Shown here: one piece after another, positions 32,969-48,543 of the stretch
Position numbering within the stretch: the first letter of the stretch is position 1
Layout of the letters: each line of letters begins with the position of its first letter
DNA from: Shigella phage 2019SD1
Reading direction: 5' to 3' (one strand)
Sequence record: MT360681
Length of the DNA: 53,145 bases
The notes under the pieces: model-generated
The model's input: only the letters and a program-made list of their open reading frames with translations
Told to the model about the DNA's origin: nothing
Databases searched by the model: none
Translations under genes and position numbers: made by a program

Positions 32969-32990
32969 AAATAGCACTTTTGTTAAAACG
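32969..32990 (+). promoter_or_regulatory. Conserved promoter-like motif copy
   Basis: AAATAGCACTTTTGTTAAAACG followed by hairpin GCCCGG..CGGGC and CATAAT. Confidence 0.5.
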
Positions 32991-33043
32991 CCCGGCCTTG
33001 TGTCGGGCATAATTATTTCATCAAAACGAACAAGAGGAAAACA

Positions 33044-33223
33044 AAATGGTTGTTTACGATCCACGCGCTTTTAAAATTGCCCAAGAAGTTTCACGCGAAT
33101 CTGTTGCTGGCGGTTCTGCTAACGGCTATCAGTTTGATTGGTCGGCAGCAATGACCTTGCTTAAGGTTGCATATGGTCACGCGCCAATTAAAACAGCGGA
33201 GGAATATTATAAGCATGAAGGTT
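33044..33223 (+). CDS. Small hypothetical protein
   Basis: AGAGGAAAACAAA plus ATG, downstream of promoter motif copy at 32969-32990. Confidence 0.3.
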
Positions 33224-33457
33224 GAACAAGGTAGGCAGGCCGTATGGGATCACGCAAAGGAATGTGGGATCTCTGAAGACATAGCCGGGATAGCAAAATA
33301 TTTTGATATTGCTGACATAAGCATTATAAGCGGCGACAAAATGACTTTTCTCAATGAACGACCGCGCAAAATGCATCGCGTCCCAGCAATACCAACAAAG
33401 ATTGATTTCAAAGAGGCTATGGCGAAAATTCGCGAGCCGCGCAAATACTACAAATGA
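33215..33457 (+). CDS. Small hypothetical protein
   Basis: ORF with GGAGGA upstream. Confidence 0.3.
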   Translation: MKVEQGRQAVWDHAKECGISEDIAGIAKYFDIADISIISGDKMTFLNERPRKMHRVPAIPTKIDFKEAMAKIREPRKYYK

Positions 33458-33555
33458 GGATTATTATCATGTGGCGTTTGTTACTTTTGCCCTTACCTGT
33501 TATGATGGCGATCTCTATTGTGTATGTTGTCATAATGAGATAAGGAGAATTTTTG

Positions 33556-33733
33556 ATGAAGCAAATCAAAATCACAGATGAACAATTTATCAATGAGCGC
33601 AAGCAGGAAAGACATATAAGCAGATCGCTAATGAGTATGGCATGAACGTTCGAAGCATTGAGCGCCGCGCGGCACGATTAGCAAAGAAGGAGAGATTGAC
33701 ACAAAAGGTGCGCCGGATTTGGGATTGCTCGTG
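33556..33733 (+). CDS. Small HTH-like DNA-binding protein (one frame disruption)
   Basis: AAGGAGAA RBS plus ATG; alternative frame reads ..GKTYKQIANEYGMNVRSIERRAARLAKKE.. Confidence 0.3.
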
Positions 33734-33806
33734 AATCTGTTTTACGACGCGCCAACGGTGAAGAAGTAAGATTCAGATAATTGAAGGCAACCACGACCAA
33801 AGCGGC

Positions 33807-34997
33807 ATGAGATGGACAATCACCACTCGCGACAAAGAACAGCTAGAAGCATTAATGCAGGCCGCTATGGATGCATTTAGCGAAGAAGTTCCGCGACTTG
33901 ATCCGCAACCGGAATCACAAAAGGATTATAGCGAGACGTTATCACTGTATCCGATCTTTGATATGCACCGGGCGCAATGGCGCATAAGCATGAATGCGGC
34001 GAGAACTGGGATACAGCAACAGCAGAGCGCGAATAATTTCATTGATTATTCCATCCAGTGCGCGCCGGATAGCGAAAAGGCTGTTTTGCTGATTGGTGGT
34101 GACATGCTGCATAGTGACGGCACGGAAGCGGTGACACCTGCAAGCGGTCACGTATTGGATCAAGATAGTCGATACGCAAAACTTGTTTATGTTGCCATCC
34201 GGTCAGTGCGTCGAGCAATAGCAAAGCTGTTATCAAAACATAAAACGAGATGGACAATCACCACTCGCGACAAAGAACAGCTAGAAGCATTAATGCAGGC
34301 CGCTATGGATGCATTTAGCGAAGAAGTTCCGCGACTTGATCCGCAACCGGAATCACAAAAGGATTATAGCGAGACGTTATCACTGTATCCGATCTTTGAT
34401 ATGCACCGGGCGCAATGGCGCATAAGCATGAATGCGGCGAGAACTGGGATACAGCAACAGCAGAGCGCGAATAATTTCATTGATTATTCCATCCAGTGCG
34501 CGCCGGATAGCGAAAAGGCTGTTTTGCTGATTGGTGGTGACATGCTGCATAGTGACGGCACGGAAGCGGTGACACCTGCAAGCGGTCACGTATTGGATCA
34601 AGATAGTCGATACGCAAAACTTGTTTATGTTGCCATCCGGTCAGTGCGTCGAGCAATAGCAAAGCTGTTATCAAAACATAAAACGATCTGGTTGCGCGCA
34701 GCAATGGCGGCAGCATATGAGAATGAGCCGCGAGTGCATGTTGATGTTTCTCCGCGAGTAGTTCATCACACGCAATATGGCAAAACATTCCCGCATACCA
34801 TCATCTGGTTGCGCGCAGCAATGGCGGCAGCATATGAGAATGAGCCGCGAGTGCATGTTGATGTTTCTCCGCGAGTAGTTCATCACACGCAATATGGCAA
34901 AACATTCCCGCATACCATCATGGGCACACTATCCGCAAACCTGAAACATTGGCGGCAAAGATGCATACGCTGCGCGCGAGTACATAGCACTATATAA
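33807..34997 (+). CDS. Hypothetical protein; exact tandem 438-bp duplication (33810-34247, 34248-34685) and 117-bp tandem duplication (34686-34802, 34803-34919)
   Basis: 396-aa ORF composed largely of repeated units. Confidence 0.3.
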   Translation: MRWTITTRDKEQLEALMQAAMDAFSEEVPRLDPQPESQKDYSETLSLYPIFDMHRAQWRISMNAARTGIQQQQSANNFIDYSIQCAPDSEKAVLLIGGDMLHSDGTEAVTPASGHVLDQDSRYAKLVYVAIRSVRRAIAKLLSKHKTRWTITTRDKEQLEALMQAAMDAFSEEVPRLDPQPESQKDYSETLSLYPIFDMHRAQWRISMNAARTGIQQQQSANNFIDYSIQCAPDSEKAVLLIGGDMLHSDGTEAVTPASGHVLDQDSRYAKLVYVAIRSVRRAIAKLLSKHKTIWLRAAMAAAYENEPRVHVDVSPRVVHHTQYGKTFPHTIIWLRAAMAAAYENEPRVHVDVSPRVVHHTQYGKTFPHTIMGTLSANLKHWRQRCIRCARVHSTI

Positions 34998-35012
34998 ATC
35001 ATCAATTTAATT

Positions 35013-35040
35013 GGGCGAGGCATTTTGCTTCGCCCTTTTT
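35013..35040 (+). terminator. Hairpin terminator upstream of lysis genes
   Basis: GGGCGAG-GCATTTTGC-TTCGCCC followed by TTTTTATT. Confidence 0.4.
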
Positions 35041-35112
35041 ATTCCTTTTGTGCGTTCAATGGTTAGGATACAGTCAATTAATTGTTGACTTTTATCTACA
35101 GGAGATCTAATC

Positions 35113-35327
35113 ATGAAAGATTTTTAAACGCTGTAACTTCAGGCACTGGCGGCGCGTCAATCACTGGCGCTGTAACTGGTCAAACAACTATTGCAATAGC
35201 CAGCTTGGTTTTGATGGCTGCATTTGGTATGTGGGGCGCTTATCTTCGTTGGCGTGATAGTAAGGCGCTACGTGACGCTCTTGAATGCGGTGATATTAAG
35301 AAAGCTATTGAGATCAGAGGTAAATAA
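35113..35327 (+). CDS. Holin (start codon present but frame interrupted after 4 codons)
   Basis: CAGGAGATCTAATC plus ATG; translation ..GGASITGAVTGQTTIAIASLVLMAAFGMWGAYLRWRDSK.. with transmembrane segment and charged C-terminus. Confidence 0.45.
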
Positions 35328-35935
35328 TGAGTATAAAACAAAGAAACGTACACACAGAGAGAGTGCGATGCGCTACTGGCAAAGCATATCAAGATCGCAA
35401 AGGATGAAGTTGATAAACGTGTAAAGGTTGATATCCCTGATACAATGACCGCTGCGGCTTTTGGCGTTGCTCTTGCTCTTACTTCTCCATTACTGGAGGA
35501 AATAGAAGGAGTAAAACATAAACCGTACAAAGATATTGCTGGAATATGGACGGTTTGCGCCGGAATAACTGGACCTGACGTAATGCCGACCGCTGCGGCT
35601 TTTGGCGTTGCTCTTGCTCTTACTTCTCCATTACTGGAGGAAATAGAAGGAGTAAAACATAAACCGTACAAAGATATTGCTGGAATATGGACGGTTTGCG
35701 CCGGACGCGCAGCGATGTATTCATTCACATACAATGCTGGCACTGGTGCTTTTAGAAATTCAACCATGCTTAAGCTGATTAATAACGGTCGTTATATGGA
35801 AGCGTGCAATCAGTTATGGCGATGGACAAAATACACCAATCCAAAACAGGAAAGAAAGAAACGTCTAAAGGACTGCGCAACCGCCGCGCGGTGGAATTTA
35901 AATATTGCATTAAGGATCTGTAATCATGAGAAAGT
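35327..35935 (+). CDS. Endolysin, GH24 lysozyme-like; tandem ~141-bp duplication (35447-35587, 35588-35710) and frame disruption near N-terminus
   Basis: ..LEEIEGVKHKPYKDIAGIWTVCAG.. matches the E-G..Y.D..G..T.G.G lysozyme catalytic region; C-terminal ..FTYNAGTGAFRNSTMLKLINNGRYMEACNQLWRW.. Confidence 0.55.
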
Positions 35936-36026
35936 TATCAGCAATCGCGATCGCTGTTATTTAATATGCGTGGTTGTGTTAATTGTGCTGATTTGTCTTT
36001 ACTGGAGAGAAGAAAAGGAGGCTTAA
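35927..36026 (+). CDS. Small membrane protein (possible spanin fragment)
   Basis: ATG at 35927 overlapping end of endolysin; hydrophobic stretch; frame interrupted. Confidence 0.2.
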
Positions 36027-36040
36027 CGCCTCCTTTGTTA
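36015..36040. terminator. Bidirectional rho-independent terminator between endolysin region and convergent minus-strand gene
   Basis: GGAGGC-TTAAC-GCCTCC followed by TTTGTTA. Confidence 0.55.
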
Positions 36041-36280
36041 TTCAATTCTCTTTACAGTAACCAACAAAACGCCGTCATCATCACACAAATTATGCTCTGA
36101 TATGTTAAACGCTCGCATGTCAGAATGAATGAGCGTTAACATTGCGTGCATGAAGTCTTCATGTGAGATTTGAGAAGTAGCGCAAAACTTAAGAATTTCA
36201 TCTATCAGTTTACTTTCCATGATTTTCATGATAACCAAGTTTAGCCTCTGCTTGTTCTCTTGCCATAATTGCATCATCAA
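36038..36280 (-). CDS. Hypothetical protein (80 aa)
   Basis: Minus-strand ORF ending at the bidirectional terminator. Confidence 0.4.
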   Translation of the reverse strand: MMMQLWQENKQRLNLVIMKIMESKLIDEILKFCATSQISHEDFMHAMLTLIHSDMRAFNISEHNLCDDDGVLLVTVKRIE

Positions 36281-36324
36281 TGCTTGAAAATAATCCTAAA
36301 TGAACACTCTTACCTTTATCATAT

Positions 36325-36978
36325 ATGGTTGCATGCCATTTTTTCTTTCTTCCTCCAGCACACCCCTATTCCATTGTCATATATAAATATTTTATTCCAA
36401 TCGATTGGAATAAAATATTTATATATGACAATGGAATATTGTGGGAAATGCACAATGGAAAAATACCAGAAGGAATGGAGATAGATCATATATGGCACAA
36501 TAGGTGGGATAACAGGATTGAAAATTTAAGGCTTGCATCAAGATTAGAGAACAGCAAAAACGTATCTCTACTAAAAAGAAATAAATCTGGTAGGGTTGGG
36601 GTGTGCTGGAGGAAGAAAGAAAGGTGGAGAAACAGAAGGGGAAAAGCAAAGCACGGAAGCGTTGCTGGATGTGTAGATAAAAATGGCTATGTAAGAATAA
36701 GGTATAATGGTGTATTGCTTTTGGCACATAGGATAATATGGGAAATGCACAATGGAAAAATACCAGAAGGAATGGAGATAGATCATATATGGCACAATAG
36801 GTGGGATAACAGGATTGAAAATTTAAGGCTTGCATCAAGATTAGAGAACAGCAAAAACGTATCTCTACTAAAAAGAAATAAATCTGGTAGGGTTGGGGTG
36901 TGCTGGAGGAAGAAAGAAAAAATGGCATGCAACCATATACATATCTTTTCCTTAGAGCTTTTATTTGTTGTCTATTAA
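36325..36978 (+). CDS. HNH homing endonuclease with AP2-like DNA-binding domain; internal ~180-297-bp duplication (36442-36620 approx = 36739-36917)
   Basis: ..NGYVRIRYNGVLLLAHRIIWEMHNGKIPEGMEIDHIWHNRWDNRIENLRLASRLENSKN.. classic HNH motif; ..KSGRVGVCWRKK.. AP2-like. Confidence 0.65.
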   Translation: MVACHFFFLPPAHPYSIVIYKYFIPIDWNKIFIYDNGILWEMHNGKIPEGMEIDHIWHNRWDNRIENLRLASRLENSKNVSLLKRNKSGRVGVCWRKKERWRNRRGKAKHGSVAGCVDKNGYVRIRYNGVLLLAHRIIWEMHNGKIPEGMEIDHIWHNRWDNRIENLRLASRLENSKNVSLLKRNKSGRVGVCWRKKEKMACNHIHIFSLELLFVVY

Positions 36979-36996
36979 CATTTGACGTAAACAGTT

Positions 36997-37500
36997 CTTC
37001 ATCGCTCATTTCTCCGATCCGTAAAACATCCCTAACCCATTCGTTTTGCATACCTTCCGGGCTGTAAAGTTCAAACGAGAAAGGTCGATTTGCGGATCCT
37101 TTCTTACACCAGAACTTTCCATCAACTCCATCTGCTGCATTCAGGAACTGAACTGAGCGAGCAATGTTGCGCGCCAACTTTCCAACAACATCAACATCAT
37201 TGCCAAGAGAAATTACAGGGTAGCGATCATTTCCGTTATTAACATCATTAACCTCACCCCAAAAGCTGGACGATTGACGGTATCCGTTTGCCTGAATGGA
37301 CACGCGCACCGGAGACAATCCTTGTGCATCAGCTAATTCGATAATTTGTTTTGGTGTTAGTTTGTTGGTTTCAAACGAAAAATTCGAGTTGATGGAAAGT
37401 TCTGGTGTAAGAAAGGATCCGCAAATCGACCTTTCTCGTTTGAACTTTACAGCCCGGAAGGTATGCAAAACGAATGGGTTAGGGATGTTTTACGGATCGG
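36997..37500. repeat. Fold-back structure: ~95-bp perfect inverted repeats (36997-37090 and 37405-37500) flanking a ~315-bp segment that codes on the minus strand
   Basis: 37405-37500 is the exact reverse complement of 36997-37090; best reading frame of the enclosed segment is on the minus strand whereas the continuing gene is on the plus strand. Confidence 0.8.
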
Positions 37501-38747
37501 AGAAACTTGGACGCTTCACGGTTGAGTATCACGGAACGGATCAGCCGACCGCTCTTTATGTTGTCACAAGCCAGCCTCCTTCAACTGGTAAATCTGCCGT
37601 TAACAGCCCGGCACTTGCTCCAATGGTTGCAGAAGTAGAAAGAATTAACGATCAGCGAAAGAAGGAAAGAAAAAGATTCAGGCAAAGTTGGCAGGTCTTG
37701 CAAAAGAGACTTGGACGCTTCACGGTTGAGTATCACGGAACGGATCAGCCGACCGCTCTTTATGTTGTCACAAGCCAGCCTCCTTCAACTGGTAAATCTG
37801 CCGTTAACAGCCCGGCACTTGCTCCAATGGTTGCAGAAGTAGAAAGAATTAACGATCAGCGAAAGAAGGAAAGAAAAAGATTCAGGCAAAGTTGGCAGGT
37901 CTTGCAAAAGAGAAGCAAAACATACATTAGCGCCGCCAACGCTTCTGGCTATGCTGGTGATGATGCTGAAATGGGTAAACTAATCGAGATCATCACTCGA
38001 CACGGCAAGGCTAATAAGGGGATCTTGAATGTGCGCGCCATATATGAGGCTGCACGAAAAGTTAAGCCGTTTGTTGGTCAGGCTGGCGTAATGAAGCGTA
38101 TGGAAACGCAACTGCTGCCGATGCTTGAAGAAAGAAATTATATTTGTGTGATTAATGGCGTTGTTTTTGTAAATCCAACATTGCTGGGGAGTGAATCAAA
38201 CATCCAGCTTAAGATCAGCAAATCAGCAATGCGAGTTCTTAACATGGCTCGTCAGGAGATGGAACCGCACCTTGCTGATGGAGGAAAGTATTCGCATACA
38301 ATGCTGCGCGGCGCGCTTGGCAAAATGGATAAGCAGGTGATCAGGATTGCTTCAGTTTTGCACACTATCCGCAACTGGTTTAATCGGCGGATACCCTCAA
38401 AAGTCGAAAGAGATCTGAAAGCATGGGATCACGGTCATGTTTCTATAGCTCGTGCAAACGCTGACAACAATATGAGTTTTAAAGCTCTTGGCTGTATGGC
38501 GGTAATTGCCCGTGATGAAACAATCAATGCCATCATGGATGCAGGATCGCGCGGTATCGGTGTGAGTGAGCGTTATTTGCTTGTGCGTGAGGAATCATTT
38601 TGTGACATCGTTTTCCCTGTGTCCGACACCACGCCGGAAGGACTTGCAAGAATCAACAATCGCCGGGGTAACTTTGCTGTGATTTCAGACGAGGCAACGA
38701 GTATTAACAGCCTTATTGATGATAACTCCTTTTTGATGCGGCAATAA
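37500..38747 (+). CDS. Putative replication protein with P-loop-like motif (primase/helicase-type, tentative); tandem 204-bp duplication (37506-37709, 37710-37913); native N-terminus probably lies in the inverted segment upstream
   Basis: ..VVTSQPPSTGKSAV.. Walker A-like; long ORF in replication region. Confidence 0.3.
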   Translation, partial: EKLGRFTVEYHGTDQPTALYVVTSQPPSTGKSAVNSPALAPMVAEVERINDQRKKERKRFRQSWQVLQKRLGRFTVEYHGTDQPTALYVVTSQPPSTGKSAVNSPALAPMVAEVERINDQRKKERKRFRQSWQVLQKRSKTYISAANASGYAGDDAEMGKLIEIITRHGKANKGILNVRAIYEAARKVKPFVGQAGVMKRMETQLLPMLEERNYICVINGVVFVNPTLLGSESNIQLKISKSAMRVLNMARQEMEPHLADGGKYSHTMLRGALGKMDKQVIRIASVLHTIRNWFNRRIPSKVERDLKAWDHGHVSIARANADNNMSFKALGCMAVIARDETINAIMDAGSRGIGVSERYLLVREESFCDIVFPVSDTTPEGLARINNRRGNFAVISDEATSINSLIDDNSFLMRQ

Positions 38748-38769
38748 TACCGCACCAATGCTACCCGCA

Positions 38770-38788
38770 TTTAACAAAAATGCTATTT
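38770..38788 (-). promoter_or_regulatory. Conserved promoter-like motif copy (variant), leftward orientation
   Basis: Minus-strand reading AAATAGCATTTTTGTTAAA followed by stem-loop TGCGG-TATTATT-CCGCA. Confidence 0.4.
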
Positions 38789-39128
38789 GATCCGCTCTAT
38801 GCTAACTAAGATTTTTCTGGTTCCCTTGCGCTATGGCAATGCGCGGTTACGGAATCAGCAAAATCAAAATAAAGTGATTTGTGGTAAGAAAGACCAATCA
38901 GCCACCCAACCATCGTTTTCTTTATTGGCCTGACTATATCGCCGTGATTGAAGGTTTTGTTGCCGAATGAGTCACCTTATAGCGATATTCTGGTAACGCT
39001 TTCCTTCTTTGAAATGCTTTTTGCACGGGATCTTGTGATCTACAAAGGTGCATTTAATTGTTTTGTTTTGATATGACGATAGTCAGACTCAACAGCGTTT
39101 TGCCACTTACTACCCTTTGTAATGTTCT

Positions 39129-39239
39129 TTACCCGAATTGTTCCAACTCGATCACATCATCGCTACCAGAAATTTTTTCGTATACGGTTTTATAGCGCCC
39201 GCTCATCAAAACGTTGGTTTTATTGCAGATAACTTTCAT
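39129..39239 (-). CDS. Small hypothetical protein (36 aa) or N-terminal remnant of a disrupted gene
   Basis: GGAGAAATAAACG plus ATG (minus strand) 50 bp downstream of promoter motif copy at 39293-39314. Confidence 0.25.
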   Translation of the reverse strand: MKVICNKTNVLMSGRYKTVYEKISGSDDVIELEQFG

Positions 39240-39292
39240 CGTTTATTTCTCCTTTCGTTTCGGTGAAGTGATTATGCCGTGCTTTTACACCG

Positions 39293-39314
39293 CTTTTAAC
39301 AAAAGTGCTATTTT
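39293..39314 (-). promoter_or_regulatory. Conserved promoter-like motif copy
   Basis: Minus-strand reading AAATAGCACTTTTGTTAAAAG then stem CGGTG..CACCG enclosing CATAAT, RBS and ATG. Confidence 0.55.
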
Positions 39315-39386
39315 GCGTTTGCTTCAAATACTGCGCGAGCAAAACCGCGCGGAGTGAGGGAGCGTAATTGTTTTGTTCTGGCAGAC

Positions 39387-41551: not shown

Positions 41552-41564
41552 CTTTATTTCTCCT

Positions 41565-41808
41565 TCATTGCTGATCGCGTTTAACTGCCCACAGAACATC
41601 GCAGGACTCGTTAATGAATTTTGCCATGCGTTTATCATCACCAGCAGGAATTAGCGCGTTAAACTCGCGTTTGCTACTGAACACAGTCACTTTATGGAAT
41701 GATGCGAACGGCATCGACGGGAACTCTACTGTTTGCGTCAAGATCCGCAATCCCATCTTTTGGCCCCACCGGCCTCTGCAACTTCAAAATCCACTTCATT
41801 AATCATTT
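41565..41808 (-). CDS. Hypothetical protein (frame disruption near start)
   Basis: Minus-strand ORF 41565-41756 with in-context ATG at about 41808 in a neighbouring frame. Confidence 0.25.
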
Positions 41809-42075: not shown

Positions 42076-42136
42076 TGCTATCTCCTGATGGGTATCTCGT
42101 TTCGATGTGTCTAATGTACCCGATCAGGGCAATTCA

Positions 42137-42157
42137 GTTTTAACAAAAGTGCTATTT
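42137..42157 (-). promoter_or_regulatory. Conserved promoter-like motif copy
   Basis: Minus-strand reading AAATAGCACTTTTGTTAAAAC then imperfect stem enclosing TACATT, RBS AGGAGA, ATG. Confidence 0.55.
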
Positions 42158-42229
42158 GCTGACTGGTCATTATTCCAACTATTCCATTAATCAGGAATAA
42201 CAGGAATAAATCATTCGCGATCACCGGAT

Positions 42230-42740
42230 TGTGAGAACTTGAGTTTGATCAATTTTAATCAAGTGATTAACTTTTTGTGTGGAGGGATAGAGAAATGCGG
42301 TCCTCTTGCGCCCTTTCCGGCAATCCCGGCGCGCACATCTGTTATCTTCTGTTATCGCTGTTATGCGTGTTATTCCGGCGTGGAATCGCATAACAAAAAT
42401 AACAAGATAAATCCATATAACATACTAAAAATAAGGATTATTTATTTATATGTATCTATAAATTACTATCTGTTATGTGTGTTGTGTGGTCATATTGATG
42501 TCTGATGTATTCTTGGTGATTGTGTGTGGTTGTGTGTTGGCAGGTATGTATATATGGGGTGGGGGCGAATCCGCGCATTTTTAGATAACACGCCAAAATA
42601 ACATTGATTTATAAGGAGAAAAACGAGAATCTTGTTGTGTTCTGAAAAGGCAACATTGAAAAACTGCCAATAACAATAAAAACATTTGACGCGCCAGAAT
42701 GGTAAATGATAATGCAGCCACTGAATCACGAGAGGGTATA
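42230..42740. promoter_or_regulatory. Divergent intergenic control region between minus-strand and plus-strand early gene blocks; AT-rich with GTGT-rich repeats
   Basis: No ORFs; repeats similar in style to 19930-20130 (TTATGTGTG, GTGGTTGTGTGTTGG). Confidence 0.4.
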
Positions 42741-42744
42741 AAGC

Positions 42745-43085
42745 ATGAGTGAATCTGTATTTACAAATGAGCTTCGCAAGGTTGCGACTGCGCTCGCATC
42801 TGGAACACATGAATCTATTCAGATACCTGAAAGATGGGTAAGGCAGCACCGGAGGGTAAGAAGTCAGCCAGCAATGCCGGATCATATCTGCGTCAGATTA
42901 TGGGGCGCGTTCCAGAAGTGGCGGAGAAGGGTAGAGTTTCAGTATCAAAGAAACCTTACGGCCCTGATAGCGAATATTTCGGCGAAAATTACTTTGATGT
43001 GGCGATTGTTAGTGCGCCTAATCGCAGGGTGTACAACAAGGCGGCGCTTGAGAAGGCTGTAGCGAAAGCAAAACGCCGTTGCTGA
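42745..43085 (+). CDS. Hypothetical early protein (frame change near 42835)
   Basis: GAGAGGGTATAAAGC plus ATG; two overlapping ORFs that join into one with a 1-bp correction. Confidence 0.35.
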
Positions 43086-43223
43086 GTCAATGCTTAAAGT
43101 TTCACCAAGCCCGGCGAACTACTCGCCAGATGAATATGAAACACTTGCTAAGGCGATTGCAGACTTTCACGCGATCATTAAAGAAACATATCTTAACGAT
43201 GAGGAGAATTTGACTCTGACCGG

Positions 43224-43244
43224 AAATAGCACTTTTGTTAAAAC
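43224..43244 (+). promoter_or_regulatory. Conserved promoter-like motif copy
   Basis: AAATAGCACTTTTGTTAAAAC followed by CATAAT and hairpin, then RBS and ATG at 43323. Confidence 0.55.
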
Positions 43245-43322
43245 TCAAAAACGATAACCAAGCATAATAAATCACATAGGGCGGCACGGCGTCGCCCACA
43301 AAACCAATCAGGAGAAATCACC

Positions 43323-43607
43323 ATGTTAAAACTTGCTGACATCAAATTCCCAATCACCTTCGAATCTCGCGGAGTTGGTCATTTCATTTTACCGATGAGA
43401 AAACATGCCATAAGGTTTGGTCGCATAGCGACAAGTCAGAGCCATCAACTATGGAAATTGATCACTTCATTGATAAGCATAATCAGCACTACATCTCATA
43501 TAAAGACTACGGCTACGCAATGCCGCTACACCTGTTTGCACTATAAGCCATACAAAGGCCGTGTTACCAGTGCGCTCACCGGAACGCGCAGAGATTCCGA
43601 TTGTTGA
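43323..43607 (+). CDS. Hypothetical early protein, paralogous N-terminus to next gene
   Basis: AGGAGAAATCACC plus ATG; ..IKFPITFESRGVGHF.. vs ..IKYPITFHTVGNS.. in next gene. Confidence 0.3.
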   Translation: MLKLADIKFPITFESRGVGHFILPMRKHAIRFGRIATSQSHQLWKLITSLISIISTTSHIKTTATQCRYTCLHYKPYKGRVTSALTGTRRDSDC

Positions 43608-43631
43608 GATGAAAACCTGCGACTATAAAAA

Positions 43632-44774
43632 TTGTGGTGCTTAAGCGTGGATAACATCAAGTATCCGATCACGTTCCACACGGTTGGTAACTCAACTATT
43701 CGATTCACATCTCGCGACAATGGCGTTTATAGCGACGGTCAGAAATCAGAGTTGAAAGTTGATTTCTTTGTCAATGGTCACAACAAATTCAATCCGCACA
43801 ACGAAAAAGATAAGGTGTACTACGTGGAAGATATTACAAAACACTTGTTTGGCGAAACTCCATTCGGCGGCGGGAAGACGTCAATTCAACAAATCATTGA
43901 CGATCAGATCCGCAAGGCAGCCGTTGAAATGAAAGCGCCCGGAGGCTGGCGTATTGATAAGGGCGCCTTTACCATTCAAGAAATCGTAACGCAGGGCGCG
44001 ATTGAAGACATGCCGCTTGGCGCTTCAATCATCGGCATCAAAGACGACAACGGCGACTGGCAGGATGTTTCATTCCTGTTAAGCAGATCGAAGTACACGA
44101 CGACCTGTTTTGCCTCCCGGCGCATCATGGCAGCTACAAGGGCAAAGCCTTTGCCGCAGAGCTTGACATCAAGCGCGGAACGATTGTTAAGTGGAAGGCA
44201 AAAGTGTAAAGATAACATCAAGTATCCGATCACGTTCCACACGGTTGGTAACTCAACTATTCGATTCACATCTCGCGACAATGGCGTTTATAGCGACGGT
44301 CAGAAATCAGAGTTGAAAGTTGATTTCTTTGTCAATGGTCACAACAAATTCAATCCGCACAACGAAAAAGATAAGGTGTACTACGTGGAAGATATTACAA
44401 AACACTTGTTTGGCGAAACTCCATTCGGCGGCGGGAAGACGTCAATTCAACAAATCATTGACGATCAGATCCGCAAGGCAGCCGTTGAAATGAAAGCGCC
44501 CGGAGGCTGGCGTATTGATAAGGGCGCCTTTACCATTCAAGAAATCGTAACGCAGGGCGCGATTGAAGACATGCCGCTTGGCGCTTCAATCATCGGCATC
44601 AAAGACGACAACGGCGACTGGCAGGATGTTTCATTCCTGTTAAGCAGATCGAAGTACACGACGACCTGTTTTGCCTCCCGGCGCATCATGGCAGCTACAA
44701 GGGCAAAGCCTTTGCCGCAGAGCTTGACATCAAGCGCGGAACGATTGTTAAGTGGAAGGCAAAAGTGTAAATAG
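43632..44774 (+). CDS. Hypothetical early protein; exact tandem ~561-bp duplication (43650-44210, 44211-44771); C-terminus frame-disrupted
   Basis: 380-aa ORF consisting of two identical 187-aa units. Confidence 0.35.
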   Translation: MWCLSVDNIKYPITFHTVGNSTIRFTSRDNGVYSDGQKSELKVDFFVNGHNKFNPHNEKDKVYYVEDITKHLFGETPFGGGKTSIQQIIDDQIRKAAVEMKAPGGWRIDKGAFTIQEIVTQGAIEDMPLGASIIGIKDDNGDWQDVSFLLSRSKYTTTCFASRRIMAATRAKPLPQSLTSSAERLLSGRQKCKDNIKYPITFHTVGNSTIRFTSRDNGVYSDGQKSELKVDFFVNGHNKFNPHNEKDKVYYVEDITKHLFGETPFGGGKTSIQQIIDDQIRKAAVEMKAPGGWRIDKGAFTIQEIVTQGAIEDMPLGASIIGIKDDNGDWQDVSFLLSRSKYTTTCFASRRIMAATRAKPLPQSLTSSAERLLSGRQKCK

Positions 44775-44790
44775 CACGAATTGTTAAAAC
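44769..44790 (+). promoter_or_regulatory. Conserved promoter-like motif copy (CGAATTG variant)
   Basis: AAATAGCACGAATTGTTAAAAC followed by GGCC-GTATAAT-GGCC. Confidence 0.55.
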
Positions 44791-44841
44791 TCAAATGTGG
44801 GGCCGTATAATGGCCTCACTTTCAACGAAGGGGATAAAACG

Positions 44842-45062
44842 ATGTACATTAACAAGAATATGAAATGCGTTTCCGTTAACTATGGTTGTGCTGGAATGTT
44901 CAAGCCCGGCGAAATCTATACGGCGCAGAAACTGAAATCATCAACCTGATCCTTTTACGTAAGCAACAGTAAGGGACATCGCATGTTCCTGAACGGCGGA
45001 GAAGGCACTAAGGTTATGGCGCACGCCATGGTGATTGCTGAATTTGAGGAAGTGAAGAAATG
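44842..45062 (+). CDS. Small hypothetical protein (frame disruption)
   Basis: AAGGGGATAAAACG plus ATG downstream of promoter motif 44769-44790. Confidence 0.3.
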
Positions 45063-45063
45063 A

Positions 45064-45609
45064 TTGTCTACGTTAAAATACGAATTTGAACTTTGGGGCA
45101 GCAAATACCATTTTTCCACGAGCAAGCCGATTGTTATCGTTGATCTGGACGGCACTTTATCCGATGGAGCGCATCGCTTGCACCTGCTTCCGACAGAAGA
45201 TTTGCACCTTACAGAAAGCTGGTCTGAGTTCAACAAAGCGGCTGTTGGAGATTCGCCGATCAAGAGTACGGTTGCAGTGGTTAACGGTTTGTGGATGTCA
45301 GGATTTGCCATTGTTATCCTGACCGGACGCAGCGACGAAGTTATGGCGGATACCTGCAAGTGGCTTAGTGAAAGCGGCGTCAAGTACGATGCGTTAATCA
45401 TGCGCCGCAAGAAAGACAACCGCAAAGATACGATCATCAAAGAAGAAGTATTGCGCGCTATCGGACTGGAAAACATTGTGTGCGCTTTTGATGATTCGCC
45501 GAACGTGGTTAAGCACTTCCGCAGCCCGGGAATCACAACCTATCAGGTGACGGAATACGACAAGCCACATAGTCACATCCAATCGCACGGCGTGGAGGAA
45601 TTAAAATGA
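45064..45609 (+). CDS. HAD-superfamily phosphatase-like protein (possible nucleotide or polynucleotide 3'-phosphatase)
   Basis: ..IVIVDLDGTLSDG.. DxDGT motif I of HAD hydrolases. Confidence 0.4.
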   Translation: MSTLKYEFELWGSKYHFSTSKPIVIVDLDGTLSDGAHRLHLLPTEDLHLTESWSEFNKAAVGDSPIKSTVAVVNGLWMSGFAIVILTGRSDEVMADTCKWLSESGVKYDALIMRRKKDNRKDTIIKEEVLRAIGLENIVCAFDDSPNVVKHFRSPGITTYQVTEYDKPHSHIQSHGVEELK

Positions 45610-45767
45610 CACGGATTCTATTTGTGATTATCACAAGCTACAATTCAGCCGCCATTGAGTCTCGCGAGTTCCACGGTGAATCAAGATGTCAGGCCGCGAG
45701 AGAGCAAGTGATTTTGCATATGTCAGATAACGATAAAGAAGTTGAAGCATTCTGCGTTCGTAAATAG
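45606..45767 (+). CDS. Small hypothetical protein
   Basis: ATG overlapping previous stop; stop codon embedded in promoter motif 45763-45782. Confidence 0.3.
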   Translation: MTRILFVIITSYNSAAIESREFHGESRCQAAREQVILHMSDNDKEVEAFCVRK

Positions 45768-45782
45768 CACTTTTGCAAAACA
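45763..45782 (+). promoter_or_regulatory. Conserved promoter-like motif copy
   Basis: AAATAGCACTTTTGCAAAAC followed by GGGCTT-GCGGTATAGT-AAGCCC. Confidence 0.55.
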
Positions 45783-45836
45783 GATTATCGGGCTTGCGGT
45801 ATAGTAAGCCCATCGACAACAAACGAGGATTGAATC

Positions 45837-46133
45837 GTGGTTAATAAAGTTGAGTTTTTCAAAGCGGTAGAAAAGATTGACGGCGCGCCAAGTTTCTTTG
45901 CTATCCATTCCATTGACGGCGAAGACGTTGCATACAACGTGATTAGTCGAGACGGTATATCAAAACTTAGCGACCGGTGGGTTATATTGTGGCGAACGGT
46001 AAATGTGCATGGCGGTTATATTGTGGCGAACGGTAAATGTGCATGGCTAGATTCGCAACTAGAGCCGCGCCGCCGCGACATGCAAAATCCAGTTCTGCTT
46101 TACACGCTGGTAATTGAAGGAGTCAACAAATGA
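45837..46133 (+). CDS. Hypothetical protein; 41-bp tandem repeat at about 45968-46049
   Basis: GTG start after ACGAGGA RBS. Confidence 0.35.
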   Translation: MVNKVEFFKAVEKIDGAPSFFAIHSIDGEDVAYNVISRDGISKLSDRWVILWRTVNVHGGYIVANGKCAWLDSQLEPRRRDMQNPVLLYTLVIEGVNK

Positions 46134-46315
46134 TTTGGTTACTTGTATTTTTATTGGTTTTCTTTTATATTTCAGGATTATTCATATTCCGCGCATTGGT
46201 TAAAGTGTGTGATTGCACTGATAAAGATCAGCCTCTTGTTCTGATGTTCTGGTTTGTGTGGTTTTGGGTGGCGCTTTACCAGATTGTGCGGGATGAAAGC
46301 GGCTTTAAGTGGTGA
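46130..46315 (+). CDS. Small membrane protein
   Basis: Hydrophobic N-terminal half MIWLLVFLLVFFYISGLFIF. Confidence 0.35.
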   Translation: MIWLLVFLLVFFYISGLFIFRALVKVCDCTDKDQPLVLMFWFVWFWVALYQIVRDESGFKW

Positions 46316-46397
46316 TTCTTACTATAGCGCATTCATGCAGTGAAGAAGAAGCGCTACAGCTACGACGAGCACCGCGAGAGCGTCGTTTAAACAGCCT

Positions 46398-46946
46398 ATG
46401 TTTGATATTGCATTCTCAATGCTTGGCGTTTACCGATATGACGAGTTCATTGATCTGTATTTTGATATTGCATTCTCAATGCTTGGCGTTTACCGATATG
46501 ACGAGTTCATTGATCTGTATAACGACCGCGAGCAGAAAGAAAAGCCTCAAGCAATCTTGCAAGGAAAGTCGCCGCGCCAGTTCATGATCTGGATTAGCGA
46601 AGAAGTCATGAAGCCAGCTTTTGGCGAGCAGTATTTCGGAAATCGCATGGTTGAGCAAGTGCACGAGATGTACAGAGATTTGGCTGTTGTAATTAGTGAT
46701 GGCGGATTCACTGAAGAAATCAAGCCGCTCATTAAGGCAGGCCATGAAGTTCACATTTGCAGACTGCATCGCGAAGGTTTTACGTTTGATGGCGATTCGC
46801 GAAACTATATTGACCTGAGCGGATACCATCACCGAGTAAAACATTACGACTTCACAATGATTGATGGCGATCCAGAAAAACTGTTGACGAGATCATCAAA
46901 ACTATCCAGTGGAAACACATTAAGATCAAATAGCACGAATTGCTAA
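46398..46946 (+). CDS. Hypothetical protein; 63-bp tandem duplication at N-terminus (46398-46460, 46461-46523)
   Basis: ORF; stop embedded in promoter motif 46928-46949. Confidence 0.3.
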   Translation: MFDIAFSMLGVYRYDEFIDLYFDIAFSMLGVYRYDEFIDLYNDREQKEKPQAILQGKSPRQFMIWISEEVMKPAFGEQYFGNRMVEQVHEMYRDLAVVISDGGFTEEIKPLIKAGHEVHICRLHREGFTFDGDSRNYIDLSGYHHRVKHYDFTMIDGDPEKLLTRSSKLSSGNTLRSNSTNC

Positions 46947-46949
46947 AAC
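46928..46949 (+). promoter_or_regulatory. Conserved promoter-like motif copy (CGAATTG variant)
   Basis: AAATAGCACGAATTGCTAAAAC followed by GGTT-GCGGTATAGT-AACC. Confidence 0.55.
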
Positions 46950-47005
46950 AGATTAAAGGGGTTGCGGTATAGTAACCACACACCAAGCAACGAAAGGAAA
47001 TGACA

Positions 47006-47299
47006 ATGCGAGTTTTAATTGTTTACGAAACAAATCCAGACGGCGTCAATTTCTATGATATCGAAATGACAAGCGAACAATATGAGATCGTGAAAACCGC
47101 GCAAGGTAAGTTTATTAATTGCCACGAGGACACGCCGGGGACTGAATACCTCAACATTGCGCTATGTTCAAATCTTGAATATCTGGACGAATGCGATCAG
47201 TCTCTTCCTCATGCGTGCGCATGGAAAGATAAAACAATCATTGATCTGGAAAACCCAGCCAAGTTTGATGCAATCATTTACACTGGGATTATGTGCTAA
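47006..47299 (+). CDS. Hypothetical protein
   Basis: AAAGGAAATGACA plus ATG; downstream of promoter motif. Confidence 0.45.
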   Translation: MRVLIVYETNPDGVNFYDIEMTSEQYEIVKTAQGKFINCHEDTPGTEYLNIALCSNLEYLDECDQSLPHACAWKDKTIIDLENPAKFDAIIYTGIMC

Positions 47300-47319
47300 A
47301 TAGCACGAATTGCCAAAAG
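47298..47319 (+). promoter_or_regulatory. Conserved promoter-like motif copy (CGAATTG variant)
   Basis: AAATAGCACGAATTGCCAAAAG followed by TATAAT. Confidence 0.5.
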
Positions 47320-47373
47320 CGGGGTGCAATGCCTCGCTATAATGCAAACACCAATCAACGAGAGGGCTTGAAC

Positions 47374-47778
47374 ATGTTAGAACTTCACAAAATCCGCGTA
47401 GGCACAAAATTTGTTGTAACACGGGTATGTGGTGAGATGTGCGGTATTCGTAAAGGCGAGATTGTAACGGCTTCAGATCGCTATATCGGATCGACCAAAG
47501 AGTTTAACAGACCACGCATCAAGAATGGCTATATCATAACTCGCCGTTTGGGATTTGATCATTATTGCGTAGTGGCAACTCAAGGCGTTTTGATTGAGCT
47601 TAAGCGAATCAGCGATCATCGCGGCTGCCATATTAAGACAATGAAAACACCATTTCAGCGAGCGCGATACGATGCGCGACGGATGCGCCGACTTGCTCGA
47701 AATGCGATCAAGTTCAAAAAGCACGGCAGTAATTTTTACAGAACGTACAAAGGGATTGCGCGAAATGATGGGAAATAA
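47374..47778 (+). CDS. Hypothetical basic protein
   Basis: GAGAGGG RBS plus ATG; downstream of promoter motif 47298-47319. Confidence 0.45.
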   Translation: MLELHKIRVGTKFVVTRVCGEMCGIRKGEIVTASDRYIGSTKEFNRPRIKNGYIITRRLGFDHYCVVATQGVLIELKRISDHRGCHIKTMKTPFQRARYDARRMRRLARNAIKFKKHGSNFYRTYKGIARNDGK

Positions 47779-47908
47779 CAACAACGCAACCAATCCTAAG
47801 CCGCCATTTGATTTTCATGAAATCATGATTGTGTTATTCTTGATTCTCTTAGTTTTTATTCAGTGAGGGCAGCACTATGGTTTTAATGCACTAAAACGAA
47901 TCTTCACT

Positions 47909-48265
47909 ATGGAGTTCAATAGCTACAGTGAGGCGCGTGAATACGCTAAAAATTGCACAAGTTCATACCTTACAAGCTGCGTTTGCTGGTTGTCAAAAGT
48001 GCGACGTATGGGATCACGTATGAAAAGAGTAATTATCACTTTTATTGCCCTTATCGCTGGTTCCCATTTGGCTTATGGGTATAGCGGCATTGTTGAGTCA
48101 GTCGGCGGAATGATTATCTTCTGGCTGGCGCATATTACGGCTACGGCGATGGATTTAAAATGGCAAGCGTTACATCCTGACCGGGAAGAAATAATGTTTA
48201 ACCGCGCCGCTTCGGTGGCGCTAAAAGGAGGAAACAAATGGCTAAAAGCAATCGTAAGATGTTGA
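47909..48265 (+). CDS. Hypothetical membrane protein (start uncertain, possibly 48020)
   Basis: Hydrophobic segments ..VIITFIALIAGSHLAYGYSGIVESVGGMIIFWLAHI.. Confidence 0.3.
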   Translation: MEFNSYSEAREYAKNCTSSYLTSCVCWLSKVRRMGSRMKRVIITFIALIAGSHLAYGYSGIVESVGGMIIFWLAHITATAMDLKWQALHPDREEIMFNRAASVALKGGNKWLKAIVRC

Positions 48266-48525
48266 TTAACGCATTCGAAAAGGCAGCGCTTGAGCGTGGT
48301 TGGAATGACTCATTCCACACAGCAAATTGCATCCGACGTTACGGATTCAAGAATTGCCGCTCTTGGGCGCGTCAAATGGCTTCATGGTATGATCTTGATG
48401 CGCATTACCTTGATATGGATTGCGCCCTTGTTGAAATGATTGAGCAGGCCGCACTAGAGGATCGACCATTAACGCAATCTGATTTTGACGATTTTGTGCG
48501 CGATGAAATCTATTACATGAGCTAA
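48238..48525 (+). CDS. Hypothetical protein
   Basis: AAAGGAGGAAACAA plus ATG; stop overlaps promoter motif 48523-48543. Confidence 0.45.
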   Translation: MAKSNRKMLINAFEKAALERGWNDSFHTANCIRRYGFKNCRSWARQMASWYDLDAHYLDMDCALVEMIEQAALEDRPLTQSDFDDFVRDEIYYMS

Positions 48526-48543
48526 TAGCACTTTTGTTAAAAC
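48523..48543 (+). promoter_or_regulatory. Conserved promoter-like motif copy
   Basis: TAATAGCACTTTTGTTAAAAC followed by stem-loop GAGG..CCTC. Confidence 0.5.

Follow-up and report, generated by a model that had tools for sequence, protein, structure and literature searches.

The genome of Shigella phage 2019SD1 (record MT360681; the window is the whole stretch analysed, 53,145 nt) carries a short motif at many places, and the question is what this motif does and whether a protein of the phage or of its host reads it. The phage is T1-like, belongs to the Drexlerviridae and is ~91% identical to phage damhaus, and, judged by its sequence, the motif is the 21-nt intergenic repeat already published for T1-like phages and not a new one. 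The 2024 paper on phage TLS gives the same repeat with the consensus aaATAGCACnnnTTGnTAAAA, notes it in T1, Rtp and Rogue1 too, lists its function as an open question, and raises a stoperator, an enhancer-binding site and a UP element as possible roles (PMC11447400). The TLS repeat resembles the present one in this consensus, in its ~18 intergenic copies per genome oriented with transcription, in lying ~76 nt before start codons, and in its T, G and A subgroups; however, its description does not include the fixed 18-nt link to a -10 hexamer, the hairpins or the marbox match reported below, and the T subgroup is one base shorter in the window, which is attributed to sequence error.

The motif family proposed in the initial annotation is real, and all its listed copies exist; boxes are also found in six reference genomes of relatives (damhaus, T1, TLS, Rtp, KP36 and ESP2949-1, the set used for the marbox and geometry counts). 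The loose pattern ATAGCA[CT]-N2-5-TG[CT][TCA]AAA found 18 matches in the window, 1-3 nt from every copy listed previously except that at 51524; the copies at 51524, 15104 and 49466 hold the ATAGCAC half alone, and an extra copy at 29136 (+) had been overlooked. The N3 motif as originally typed matched 4 copies at ≤3 mismatches vs 0.03 expected, but left the remaining copies unmatched, because the spacer is one T shorter in most window copies. The two spacer sub-variants (CTTTTG and CGAATTG) did not hold up as real lengths, since the relatives have a constant N3 (TTT, GAA, TAA or AAA in damhaus, KarlJaspers, T1, TLS, Rtp and KP36); the short CTTTTG variant arises because runs of ≥5 bases are shortened throughout the window, and we attribute the one-base-short boxes to sequence error. 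The copies in the window are as follows.

4720-4746, + strand: capsid-gene promoter with an embedded box, TTGCAC (4720-4725)-N15-TGCTATCAT, -10 hexamer 4741-4746, upstream of the major capsid gene; the box itself at 4725-4743 on the - strand
9012-9031, - strand: left-pointing box between the major tail gene terminator and the RBS of the next gene; weak -10 TATCTT (8988-8993) at 18 nt
15097-15116, + strand: partial A-type copy ATAGCACAAAAGGTGAAAAG directly over the RBS of a tail protein J-like gene
19827-19902, - strand: full cassette of the leftward cor superinfection-exclusion homologue; box 19884-19902, -10 TATAGT 19861-19866, ATG 19827-19829
29136-29177, + strand: cassette upstream of the helicase gene; box 29136-29154, -10 TATTAT 29172-29177
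31896-31940, - strand: box 31922-31940 with spacer hairpin GGCGCGAAGGATTGCGCC, in an inverted segment of the window
32971-33048, + strand: cassette; box 32971-32989, spacer hairpin GCCCGGC/GTCGGGC (-13.2 kcal/mol), -10 CATAAT 33008-33013, ATG 33046
38744-38786, - strand: cassette; box 38768-38786, -10 TATTAT 38744-38749 within a stem-loop (-11.6 kcal/mol)
39237-39311, - strand: cassette; box 39293-39311, -10 CATAAT 39271-39276, ATG 39237-39239
39922-39996, - strand: exact duplicate of the 39237-39311 cassette, one of the window's duplicated segments
40761-40836, - strand: GAA-variant cassette; box 40817-40836, -10 TATAGT 40794-40799, ATG 40761-40763, without hairpin
41411-41487, - strand: cassette; box 41469-41487, -10 TATATT 41445-41450 inside the stem GATGCGC/GCGCATC, ATG 41411-41413
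42073-42155, - strand: cassette; box 42137-42155, weak spacer hairpin, -10 TACATT 42113-42118, ATG 42073-42075
43226-43325, + strand: cassette; box 43226-43244, -10 CATAAT 43263-43268, without promoter hairpin, leader stem-loop GGGCGGCACGGCGTCGCCC, ATG 43323
44771-44844, + strand: GAA-variant cassette; box 44771-44790, -10 TATAAT 44806-44811 in a stem-loop (-14.8 kcal/mol), ATG 44842
45764-45839, + strand: cassette; box 45764-45782, -10 TATAGT 45800-45805 within GGGCTT/AAGCCC (-14.9 kcal/mol), GTG 45837
46930-47008, + strand: GAA-variant cassette; box 46930-46949, -10 TATAGT 46968-46973 in a stem-loop (-8.2 kcal/mol), ATG 47006
47300-47376, + strand: GAA-variant cassette; box 47300-47319, spacer hairpin, -10 TATAAT 47338-47343, ATG 47374
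48525-48602, + strand: cassette; box 48525-48543, weak -10 TAAAGT 48562-48567 in a 10-bp stem-loop (-14.2 kcal/mol), ATG 48600
49469-49485, + strand: partial copy, the ATAGCAC half alone
51527-51546, + strand: degenerate copy ATAGCACGAATCGACAAACC ahead of the small terminase gene, lacking a -10 at 18 nt

Compact sigma70 promoter cassettes of T1-like phages are the best explanation for the motif, each copy forming the putative upstream half of one. The cassette spans ~75 nt and runs from an upstream stop codon through the 20-bp box, an 18-nt spacer, the -10 hexamer and a conserved leader to the start codon. The box, ATAGCAC-N3-TTGYTAAAAC, covers ~-50 to -31 in one fixed orientation, with A-51 to A-48, C-44, T-40 and T-36 nearly fixed, and the cassettes have no -35 element. 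Of the 93 perfect matches in the six reference genomes, 70 have the best -10 hexamer at exactly 18 nt from the end of the 20-mer and 10 more have it at 17 or 19 nt; in the window, -10-like hexamers lie 15-20 nt past the box; the 39237-39311 spacer, for instance, measures 16 nt against 18 in damhaus, whose two CCWGG sites are intact. G is found at -14 in 59/69 copies, and ~7 nt beyond the hexamer the cassettes have a predicted CA start site, with A as the start in 58/69, followed by the ~25-nt leader AUCGAAACGA...GGAG and the start codon. The RBS and start codon noted earlier downstream of the motif are thus present, with a median of 75 nt from box start to start codon, and the motif in the cassettes does follow the orientation of the downstream gene; the upstream stop codon is indeed embedded in the box, but mostly as the TAG of aTAGcac (35/79) and not as TAA. 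The rigid spacing, the G at -14, the CA start, the RBS leader and the orientation bear out the suggestion of a host sigma70-type promoter with an upstream regulator site, and support the view that this site would take the place of the -35. We infer with considerable confidence that the cassettes are promoters carrying an activator site.

The stem-loops are significant yet limited to some copies. The initial annotation placed the -10 hexamer in a stem-loop throughout, which applies to 6 of the 17 distinct window copies and to ~40% of copies in relatives, but not to the others; in about another third the hairpin lies inside the spacer, abutting the -10, and the remainder have none. A folding energy ≤-8 kcal/mol was reached by 62% of cassettes, vs 27% after swapping arms between cassettes and 6% after shuffling; stem sequences vary between copies while complementarity is kept, and the T1 and KP36 records list several of the stem-loops as rho-independent terminators. 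Nor is a -10 within or beside a hairpin unusual for phages, as had been thought, since the stem-loops of the promoter-early stem-loop (PeSL) elements, composite promoter-terminator cassettes of T4-type phages, mostly lie between -35 and -10 or over the -10 (PMC2839356, PMC4122927). PeSLs likewise join a sigma70-type promoter to a G/C-rich stem-loop and are concentrated among small early ORFs; however, where the T1-like cassettes have the box, PeSLs carry a -35 close to consensus with A/T-rich DNA upstream, and their terminator, promoter and gene-shuffling roles come from experiment, whereas for the T1-like cassettes we infer them. Most likely, the G+C-rich stem-loops, built from the free positions of spacer and discriminator, would work at the RNA level as terminators or attenuators of transcripts running on from the preceding gene, in the manner of the PeSL cassettes.

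As to the reader of the box, both variants, GCACTTTTTGTTAAA and GCACGAATTGCTAAA, fit every specified position of the published marbox 5'-gcannwwntgnnaaa-3'. Perfect marbox matches number 20 in damhaus, 20 in T1, 19 in TLS, 14 in Rtp, 14 in KP36 and 8 in ESP2949-1, against 0.3-0.8 expected from shuffled genomes; 7 to 18 copies per T1-like genome have class II geometry, while phage lambda has 1 perfect match and 0 with this geometry. The micF promoter of the E. coli chromosome reads ACAGCACTGAATGTCAAAAC-N18-TAGAAT-N7-+1, so that the phage box shares 15 of 20 bases with the micF box, the same 18-nt distance to the -10 and the forward orientation. Position 19 of the box is A, unlike the Y of the older marbox consensus, which counts against the marbox reading, although micF has A there too. 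In the literature the micF box is centred at ~-41.5, and Rob contacts G-47 and A-45. On these sequence comparisons, what is novel here is that the box appears as a marbox match in six reference genomes, with micF-like orientation and spacing. The resemblance to class II marbox promoters such as micF extends to the 20-bp asymmetric box with GCAC and YAAA sites, placed forward and overlapping the -35 position, and to the canonical -10 18 nt away without a recognisable -35; in contrast to them, 50 kb of phage DNA holds 8-20 such candidate MarA/SoxS/Rob sites, the box hardly varies, and the phage cassettes are fused to terminator-like hairpins and a common leader. In the window as given, the half-sites of most boxes stand one base too close, which counts against the marbox reading, although we put this down to sequence error.

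We consider that the cassettes may be sigma70 promoters and that host MarA, SoxS or Rob may activate them, a proposal with about an even chance of being right. The box would be a class II marbox to which a host activator of the MarA family would bind as a monomer, with its two helix-turn-helix motifs on GCAC (~-47 to -44) and YTAAA (~-37 to -33); in E. coli the candidates are Rob, MarA and SoxS, and in Klebsiella RamA as well. The activator would replace sigma region 4 on the -35, touch sigma region 4 and the alpha-CTD, and recruit RNA polymerase as at micF, and early and middle genes could then be transcribed without a phage-encoded factor. If so, early and middle gene output would track the stress and multidrug-resistance state of the host; the marbox match in sequence and position suggests that phage early genes may be wired to the bacterial antibiotic-stress switch. 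The earlier label of a phage-specific promoter class is doubtful, as the box fits the host marbox perfectly with micF class II geometry, and neither a sigma factor nor an RNA polymerase nor a MarA-like protein of the phages turned up: tblastn, phmmer and a small family HMM, with the MarA query checked against PDB entry 1BL0, detected no MarA/SoxS/Rob-like protein encoded in seven genomes (best E-value 0.15), and in TLS neither a polymerase gene nor a sigma gene was found by its authors (PMC11447400). Unstressed cells contain little MarA or SoxS, and during standard growth Rob is for the most part aggregated and inactive; that T1-like phages nevertheless grow well in plain broth counts against these activators. 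A Keio single-knockout screen with the TLS-like phage LL5 showed no need for rob, marA or soxS, a result that is not decisive, as paralogues could replace each other and the promoters may have basal activity. The phage box is also far more uniform than host marboxes, which counts against the MarA/SoxS/Rob reading; this uniformity could mean a more specific protein reader, and could also reflect the TAG stop-codon role together with homogenisation by recombination between cassettes.

Such a more specific reader could be a phage-encoded DNA-binding protein, either an activator replacing the -35 contact or a stoperator-like repressor of early genes, which we regard as rather unlikely. It could be the conserved Cro/YdaS-like regulator beside the primase gene, present with a single Cro-like helix-turn-helix in every genome, or an uncharacterised small early protein, and it would accord with the uniform box, with the single host knockouts of rob, marA and soxS lacking a phage phenotype, and with the inverted repeat TAGCA-N5-TGCTA of the GAA variant, which would suit a dimer. 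However, conservation is asymmetric, C-44 and the AAAAC tail having no symmetric partners, the box keeps one orientation and a fixed 18-nt distance to the -10, and the Pfam matches of the Cro/YdaS-like regulator fall below the curated threshold; moreover, the perfect marbox match and micF geometry would be coincidence, and another starter would be required if nearly all early promoters depended on a phage protein. The model for such an activator is the T4 middle promoter, whose MotA box, centred near -30, is read by phage MotA with AsiA (sigma appropriation). T4 middle promoters similarly keep the sigma70 -10, replace the -35 by an activator-read box and occur in many copies per genome, but their box lies near -30 vs near -41 in T1-like phages, and no homologues of MotA or AsiA or comparable factors were found here. 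The stoperators of mycobacteriophage L5, raised by the TLS authors together with enhancer-binding sites (PMC11447400), are also many asymmetric repeats oriented with transcription genome-wide; in contrast, they are repressor sites of a temperate phage, inside transcribed regions and without a fixed -10 link, whereas T1-like phages are virulent and their box stands at a fixed distance from the -10.

A box needing no factor, i.e. a UP-element-like or displaced -35-like contact of RNA polymerase strengthened by a partial extended -10 (G at -14), seems improbable to us. UP elements cover ~-59 to -38, whereas the box lies at -50 to -31; its TTGYTA is 22 nt from the -10, which exceeds the usual sigma70 spacer range, its invariant positions contain G/C (GCAC, TG) and no A/T tract, and alpha-CTD binding would not explain a 20-bit marbox match. 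Yet A/T tracts (TTTTT, AAAA) occur in the alpha-CTD-binding region, many copies have G at -14, the phages can grow without host stress, and the TLS authors mention UP elements (PMC11447400). It is very improbable that the cassettes are only portable homology blocks, shuffling small early genes like PeSLs and kept alike by gene conversion, with a box that has no reader. They do reach from a stop codon to a start codon and border early ORFs that are small and variable, identical cassettes occur across genera (TLS 6478 and damhaus 41313, both identical to that at 48525 in the window; T1 3535 and KP36 7253), partial copies sit on RBSs as if left over from recombination, and PeSLs offer a precedent for gene shuffling. 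Recombination alone, however, would not keep 17 box positions and the 18-nt distance fixed across subfamilies while spacer and stems vary freely, and it can be compatible with promoter function. Equally remote is a role in RNA, with box and hairpin as a processing, stability or antitermination signal (like boxA/boxB) in read-through transcripts: the box does lie at the 3' end of the upstream coding region with a stable hairpin next in most copies, and A-type boxes occur on RBSs, where a promoter is impossible, but the distance from box to -10 is kept whether the hairpin precedes or surrounds the hexamer, about a quarter of cassettes have no hairpin, and hairpin sequences are not conserved.

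Apart from the cassettes read here as promoters, a few copies call for their own account. Four leftward copies had been thought to point to antisense transcription or an orientation-independent role; three have an ordinary explanation, and only that at 9012 stays unexplained. The copy at 31921 lies in a window inversion (31901-32035 aligns in reverse to damhaus 24570-24435, and in damhaus the copy, at 24530, stands on the + strand ahead of dam). That at 19886 would drive the leftward cor; its damhaus counterpart at 13215(-) lies before the Cor gene annotated at 12914-13141(-). That at 4726 is embedded in the rightward capsid promoter: its box (4725-4743) forms on the + strand the spacer and extended -10 of this promoter and has no conserved -10 on the - strand, and T1, TLS, damhaus and ESP2949-1 all keep the arrangement TTGACN-16 nt-TGCTATNAT, of which KP36 has a degenerate form. 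The 9012 box is conserved in damhaus (2394-) and T1 (18850-), while Rtp instead has a normal forward cassette there. The cassette at 29136 has orthologues in damhaus (22006), T1 (36444), TLS (35843) and KP36 (36458). The copy at 15097-15116 was rejected as a promoter, as it sits on the RBS of the tail protein J-like gene; the same arrangement of an A-type copy over an RBS recurs at T1 25021, TLS 24908 and damhaus 8291, and a T1 box at 8362 lies directly over the terS RBS.

The repeat that recurs in the window, hereafter the box (ATAGCAC-N3-TTGYTAAAAC, with T, G (GAA) and A variants differing in the spacer), is a real family but already a published one. The 2024 paper on phage TLS describes a 21-nt direct repeat with the consensus aaATAGCACnnnTTGnTAAAA, present as 18 intergenic copies that follow the direction of transcription, lie about 76 nt ahead of start codons and fall into T, G and A subgroups; it states the same repeat for T1, Rtp and Rogue1, suggests stoperators, enhancer-binding sites or UP elements as its role, and names the function of the repeat as an open question about T1-like phages (PMC11447400). 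No paper besides the TLS one was found for the motif string in the searched literature. The window contains 18 full copies of this consensus, the GAA copies being exact and the T copies one T short, which is consistent with base runs being shortened throughout the window, and the copies are intergenic, transcription-directed and about 76 nt before the start, with the exceptions of 4743, 9031 and 31940. Every position listed in the initial annotation except 51524 was recovered among 18 matches to a loose pattern; the motif as typed there, with N3, occurs in only four places at three or fewer mismatches, against 0.03 expected. The sites at 51524, 15104 and 49466 retain the ATAGCAC half only, and an additional copy, absent from that list, lies at 29136.

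Window positions 32000-50000 match T1-like phages by megablast, the top match being Escherichia phage damhaus (Drexlerviridae, subfamily Tempevirinae, genus Hanrivervirus) at 91% identity over 75% of the query, and the comparisons here cover damhaus, T1, TLS, Rtp, Klebsiella phage KP36 and Cronobacter phage ESP2949-1, plus part of KarlJaspers. Alignment with damhaus gives 206 single-base gaps, in about 190 of which the base is absent from the window, mostly from A, T or G runs or from the middle of CCWGG; there are no CCWGG sites in the window versus 83-115 in the relatives, and runs of at least six bases are almost absent. Some segments are inverted relative to damhaus, the long ORFs are open, yet with locally frame-shifted patches, and exact duplications (150 to more than 300 nt, many of them tandem) form at least 27 families, with a start-to-start spacing that is a multiple of 3 in every one of the 20 families listed. 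Examples of the exactly duplicated segments are:

43650-43949 and 44211-44510
26295-26594 and 26895-27194
11708-11995 and 11996-12283
17304-17437 and 17439-17572

The window does not faithfully reproduce a natural genome, and its duplications are what the initial annotation called a copy-paste artefact. The box copies at 39311 and 39996 are identical duplicates; the box copies themselves are no artefact, since the natural relatives have them at the same places. The comparison with damhaus and KarlJaspers also removes the two spacer lengths that had been distinguished, as the short CACTTTTG reads CACTTTTTG in damhaus, KarlJaspers, T1, TLS, Rtp and KP36, where the spacer from ATAGCAC to TTG is always 3 nt. 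As a separate observation, this T1-like coliphage sequence also matches 20 GenBank records named 'Campylobacter phage' (e.g. A16a, A15a and A118), with 89-90% identity across about half of the query in the four listed; this suggests that their host is mislabelled or that they are contaminated.

In the two early blocks, a -10-like hexamer comes after every box copy, and then a leader that is rich in purines and contains an RBS, before the start codon. The anatomy of this cassette, which runs from the upstream stop codon through the box, an 18-nt spacer, the -10 hexamer and the leader to the start codon, was defined on the 93 sites in the six reference genomes that perfectly match the marbox as published, 5'-gcannwwntgnnaaa-3'. 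The distance from the box to the best -10 is 18 nt in 70 of the 93, 17 nt in eight and 19 nt in two. Conservation was measured on 69 high-scoring cassettes with 18-nt spacing, with positions counted from the -10 hexamer, and with A at -11 and T at -7 fixed by selection; beyond the selected positions, A-51 to A-48, C-44, T-40, T-36 and A-32 are conserved, G stands at -14 in 59, C at -1 in 43 and A at +1 in 58 of these cassettes, and the leader after +1 is A-rich. No -35 hexamer is present, its position being occupied by AAAACN. Among 79 cassettes of the relatives, the upstream ORF ends at the TAG of aTAGcac in 35 and abuts the box in 13 more, and the start codon lies at a median of 75 nt from where the box begins. 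The proposal of a phage-specific promoter class stands in part: that the cassettes are promoters is well supported by their sequence, whereas 'phage-specific' is doubtful.

The doubt arises in part from the match to the host marbox. In class II promoters, as described in the literature, a forward marbox lies over the -35 and no -35 is recognisable; at micF the box is centred at about -41.5, with GCAC as the A site and CAAA as the B site, and Rob contacts G-47 and A-45. The phage variants GCACTTTTTGTTAAA and GCACGAATTGCTAAA fit the marbox at every specified position. Perfect matches number 20 in damhaus, 20 in T1, 19 in TLS, 14 in Rtp, 14 in KP36 and eight in ESP2949-1, against 0.3-0.8 expected from shuffled genomes, and 7-18 per reference genome have a -10 at 17-19 nt, while in phage lambda the only perfect match lacks class II geometry. 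The window as given has only seven, because its T runs are shortened. The phage box is forward over the -35 position, with GCAC at about -47 to -44 as in micF, and a canonical sigma70 -10 follows with no recognisable -35. The micF promoter, read from an E. coli chromosome, consists of ACAGCACTGAATGTCAAAAC, 18 nt, TAGAAT, 7 nt and the start, so that its spacing is identical to the 18 nt of the phages and 15 of 20 box bases are shared. The older marbox consensus is AYnGCACnnWnnRYYAAAYn; it fits the phage box save at position 19, where micF too has the A of the phages. What this analysis adds is this exact class II marbox match, which leads to a specific and cheap test.

A MarA/SoxS/Rob-like protein was not found among the ORFs of 40 aa or more in the window and the six reference genomes, whether by tblastn, phmmer or a small family HMM (best E-value 0.15). 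The MarA query was checked against PDB entry 1BL0 and matches it at 2e-84. The conserved regulator of these phages, adjoining the primase gene, has a single Cro/YdaS-like helix-turn-helix, with Pfam scores below threshold:

window 28646-29158; T1 35979-36431: Cro/YdaS-like regulator, conserved, divergent from the helicase gene

The helicase gene itself carries a box in its promoter. The TLS authors report that they found neither an RNA polymerase nor a sigma gene (PMC11447400). The hosts of these phages are all Enterobacteriaceae, in which MarA, SoxS, Rob and RamA occur. Since the hosts are of this group and no such phage regulator was found, a host MarA-family activator driving the cassette promoters would be the simplest reading. 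We propose, tentatively and with somewhat less than even weight, that a whole family of virulent enterobacterial phages, the Drexlerviridae, may use 8-20 canonical class II marbox promoters for the transcription of their early and middle genes, borrowing host MarA, SoxS, Rob or RamA and having no factor of their own. Rob is the constitutively present member of the MarA family; in unstressed cells it is reported to be largely aggregated, which counts against a host activator, as does the phage box being far more uniform than host sites. A Keio screen with the T1-like (TLS-like) phage LL5 gave no rob, marA or soxS hit and weighs in the same direction, tempered by the redundancy of these paralogues, which were knocked out singly. 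In the searched literature we found no link between marboxes and T1-like or Drexlerviridae phages, no transcription start data for Drexlerviridae, and no account of transcription control in T1-like phages.

Other readings of the box fit less well. The resemblance of TAGCAC-N3-TTGC to a sigma54 promoter, whose consensus is TGGCAC-N5-TTGCW with GG at -24 and GC at -12, fails in that AG stands in place of GG, the spacing between the blocks is 2 nt shorter, and the -10 downstream is a conserved one of the sigma70 type. TTGYTA is not a -35, since its 22-nt distance from the -10 is too great, and IHF or LysR-type sites fit poorly, as judged by eye only. UP elements bind alpha-CTD through an A/T-rich tract that covers about -59 to -38; the box, spanning -50 to -31 with GCAC and TG among its invariant positions, is not of that kind. 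N4-type hairpin promoters have a short stem and a conserved 3-nt loop and are read by a phage-encoded virion RNA polymerase, and they are excluded because the loops here are of 4-12 nt, on variable stems, and no RNA polymerase gene is annotated in T1-like genomes. A symmetric operator for a Cro-like dimer is discernible as TAGCA-N5-TGCTA in the GAA variant only, with asymmetric flanks, and was rejected as a description of the box; it survives as part of a rival explanation.

The hairpins of the cassettes were analysed by folding the spacer, the hexamer and 8 further nt of 79 cassettes. The mean folding energy is -9.1 kcal/mol; it rises to -5.8 if cassettes exchange their downstream arms and to -3.8 after shuffling, and 62% of cassettes reach -8 kcal/mol or lower, versus 27% of the arm-swapped and 6% of the shuffled sequences. 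In about a third, the hairpin is confined to the 18-nt spacer and its 3' arm abuts the -10; the T1 and KP36 records annotate several such spacer hairpins as rho-independent terminators, whose U tract is supplied by the -10 together with the T-rich discriminator. In about 40%, the spacer pairs with the discriminator, and often also with the last hexamer bases, placing the -10 in or at the loop, and perfect stems of at least 6 bp in this layout amount to 24%, versus 1.5% in the arm-swap control. The stems vary between copies of one genome (e.g. GGGGTA/TACCCC, AAGGCC/GGCCTT and GGGAGT/ACTCCC), and stems that differ yet stay complementary indicate that the pairing, not the sequence, is kept.

Presentation of the -10 in a hairpin loop, which the initial annotation had regarded as general and unusual, applies to six of the 17 distinct window copies, the others not enclosing the hexamer, and has a precedent in the promoter-early stem-loop (PeSL) cassettes of T4-type phages. 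Those cassettes extend from stop codon to start codon with a sigma70 promoter and a stem-loop, mostly between -35 and -10 or over the -10, the stem-loops terminate transcription in reporter tests, and shuffling of genes is mediated by the cassettes (PMC2839356, PMC4122927). The cassettes described here are likewise repeated stop-to-start units with a sigma70-type promoter, an SD sequence and a stable stem-loop, which occurs in both of these positions; unlike in PeSL, the box takes the place of the near-consensus -35 with its A/T-rich upstream region. By analogy, the hairpins would act on RNA read through from the upstream gene, and appear to be built from the sole freely variable positions of the cassette. 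Alternatively, they may have a role at the DNA level, e.g. in pre-melting of the -10.

The four leftward copies of the structural region had been taken as possible signs of antisense transcription or of an orientation-independent role. Three of them are accounted for as follows, and the one at 9031 is unexplained:

19902, leftward: drives the leftward cor gene
31940, leftward, in an inverted segment: the damhaus counterpart points rightward, to the dam gene
4743, reversed: inside a rightward promoter upstream of the capsid gene

This capsid promoter is composed of TTGACN, a 16-nt spacer formed by the reversed box, and TGCTATNAT, its extended -10 being ATAGCA in reverse complement. The promoter has been kept in T1, TLS, damhaus and ESP2949-1, with a degenerate form in KP36, and a leader hairpin with a T run lies downstream of it, just before the RBS:

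window 4720-4779; T1 15055-15142: capsid promoter with leader hairpin, near-consensus sigma70, layout conserved in five genomes

It could be a regulated late promoter, either attenuated or repressed. A marbox within the promoter spacer is reported to repress at pbpG, so the same factor could hold the capsid promoter down; speculatively, a box-binding factor would keep it low early in infection. A-type or degenerate boxes are also seen at the RBS of the tail J-like and small terminase genes, directly over it or just upstream, where a promoter role is impossible, and these may be recombination relics or have another role:

window 15097-15116 and 51527-51546; T1 25021 and 8362: boxes at an RBS

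The class II marbox reading reduces the question of repeat function to a few standard experiments. If it is true, phage genes would be expressed more strongly in cells that are under stress or are multidrug-resistant through mar or ram derepression, and the reversed box of the capsid promoter could switch early to late expression as replicating genomes titrate the activator. These phages would then be a clear case of a virulent phage whose gene expression is tied to host antibiotic-stress regulators. Such a tie would matter for combining phages with antibiotics, and also for deploying T1-like phages of Klebsiella and E. coli against multidrug-resistant strains, in which MarA or RamA is often overproduced. 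If the marbox reading is wrong, the cassettes still define a promoter class of this phage family and still extend PeSL-type promoter-terminator cassettes beyond T4-type phages.

Most leaders are conserved as CAUCGAaACGA...GGAG (e.g. 41413-41444 on the minus strand and 45806-45836), and their ACGAGGA part is, by eye, loosely like a CsrA-type GGA site. In some cassettes, an alternative leader with the G+C-rich stem-loop CACATAGGGCGGCACGGCGTCGCCC and its variants replaces the usual AUCGAAACGA leader:

window 43270-43300: cassette with CACATAGGGCGGCACGGCGTCGCCC-type leader
ESP2949-1, near 22188, 20826 and 27376: cassettes with CACATAGGGCGGCACGGCGTCGCCC-type leader
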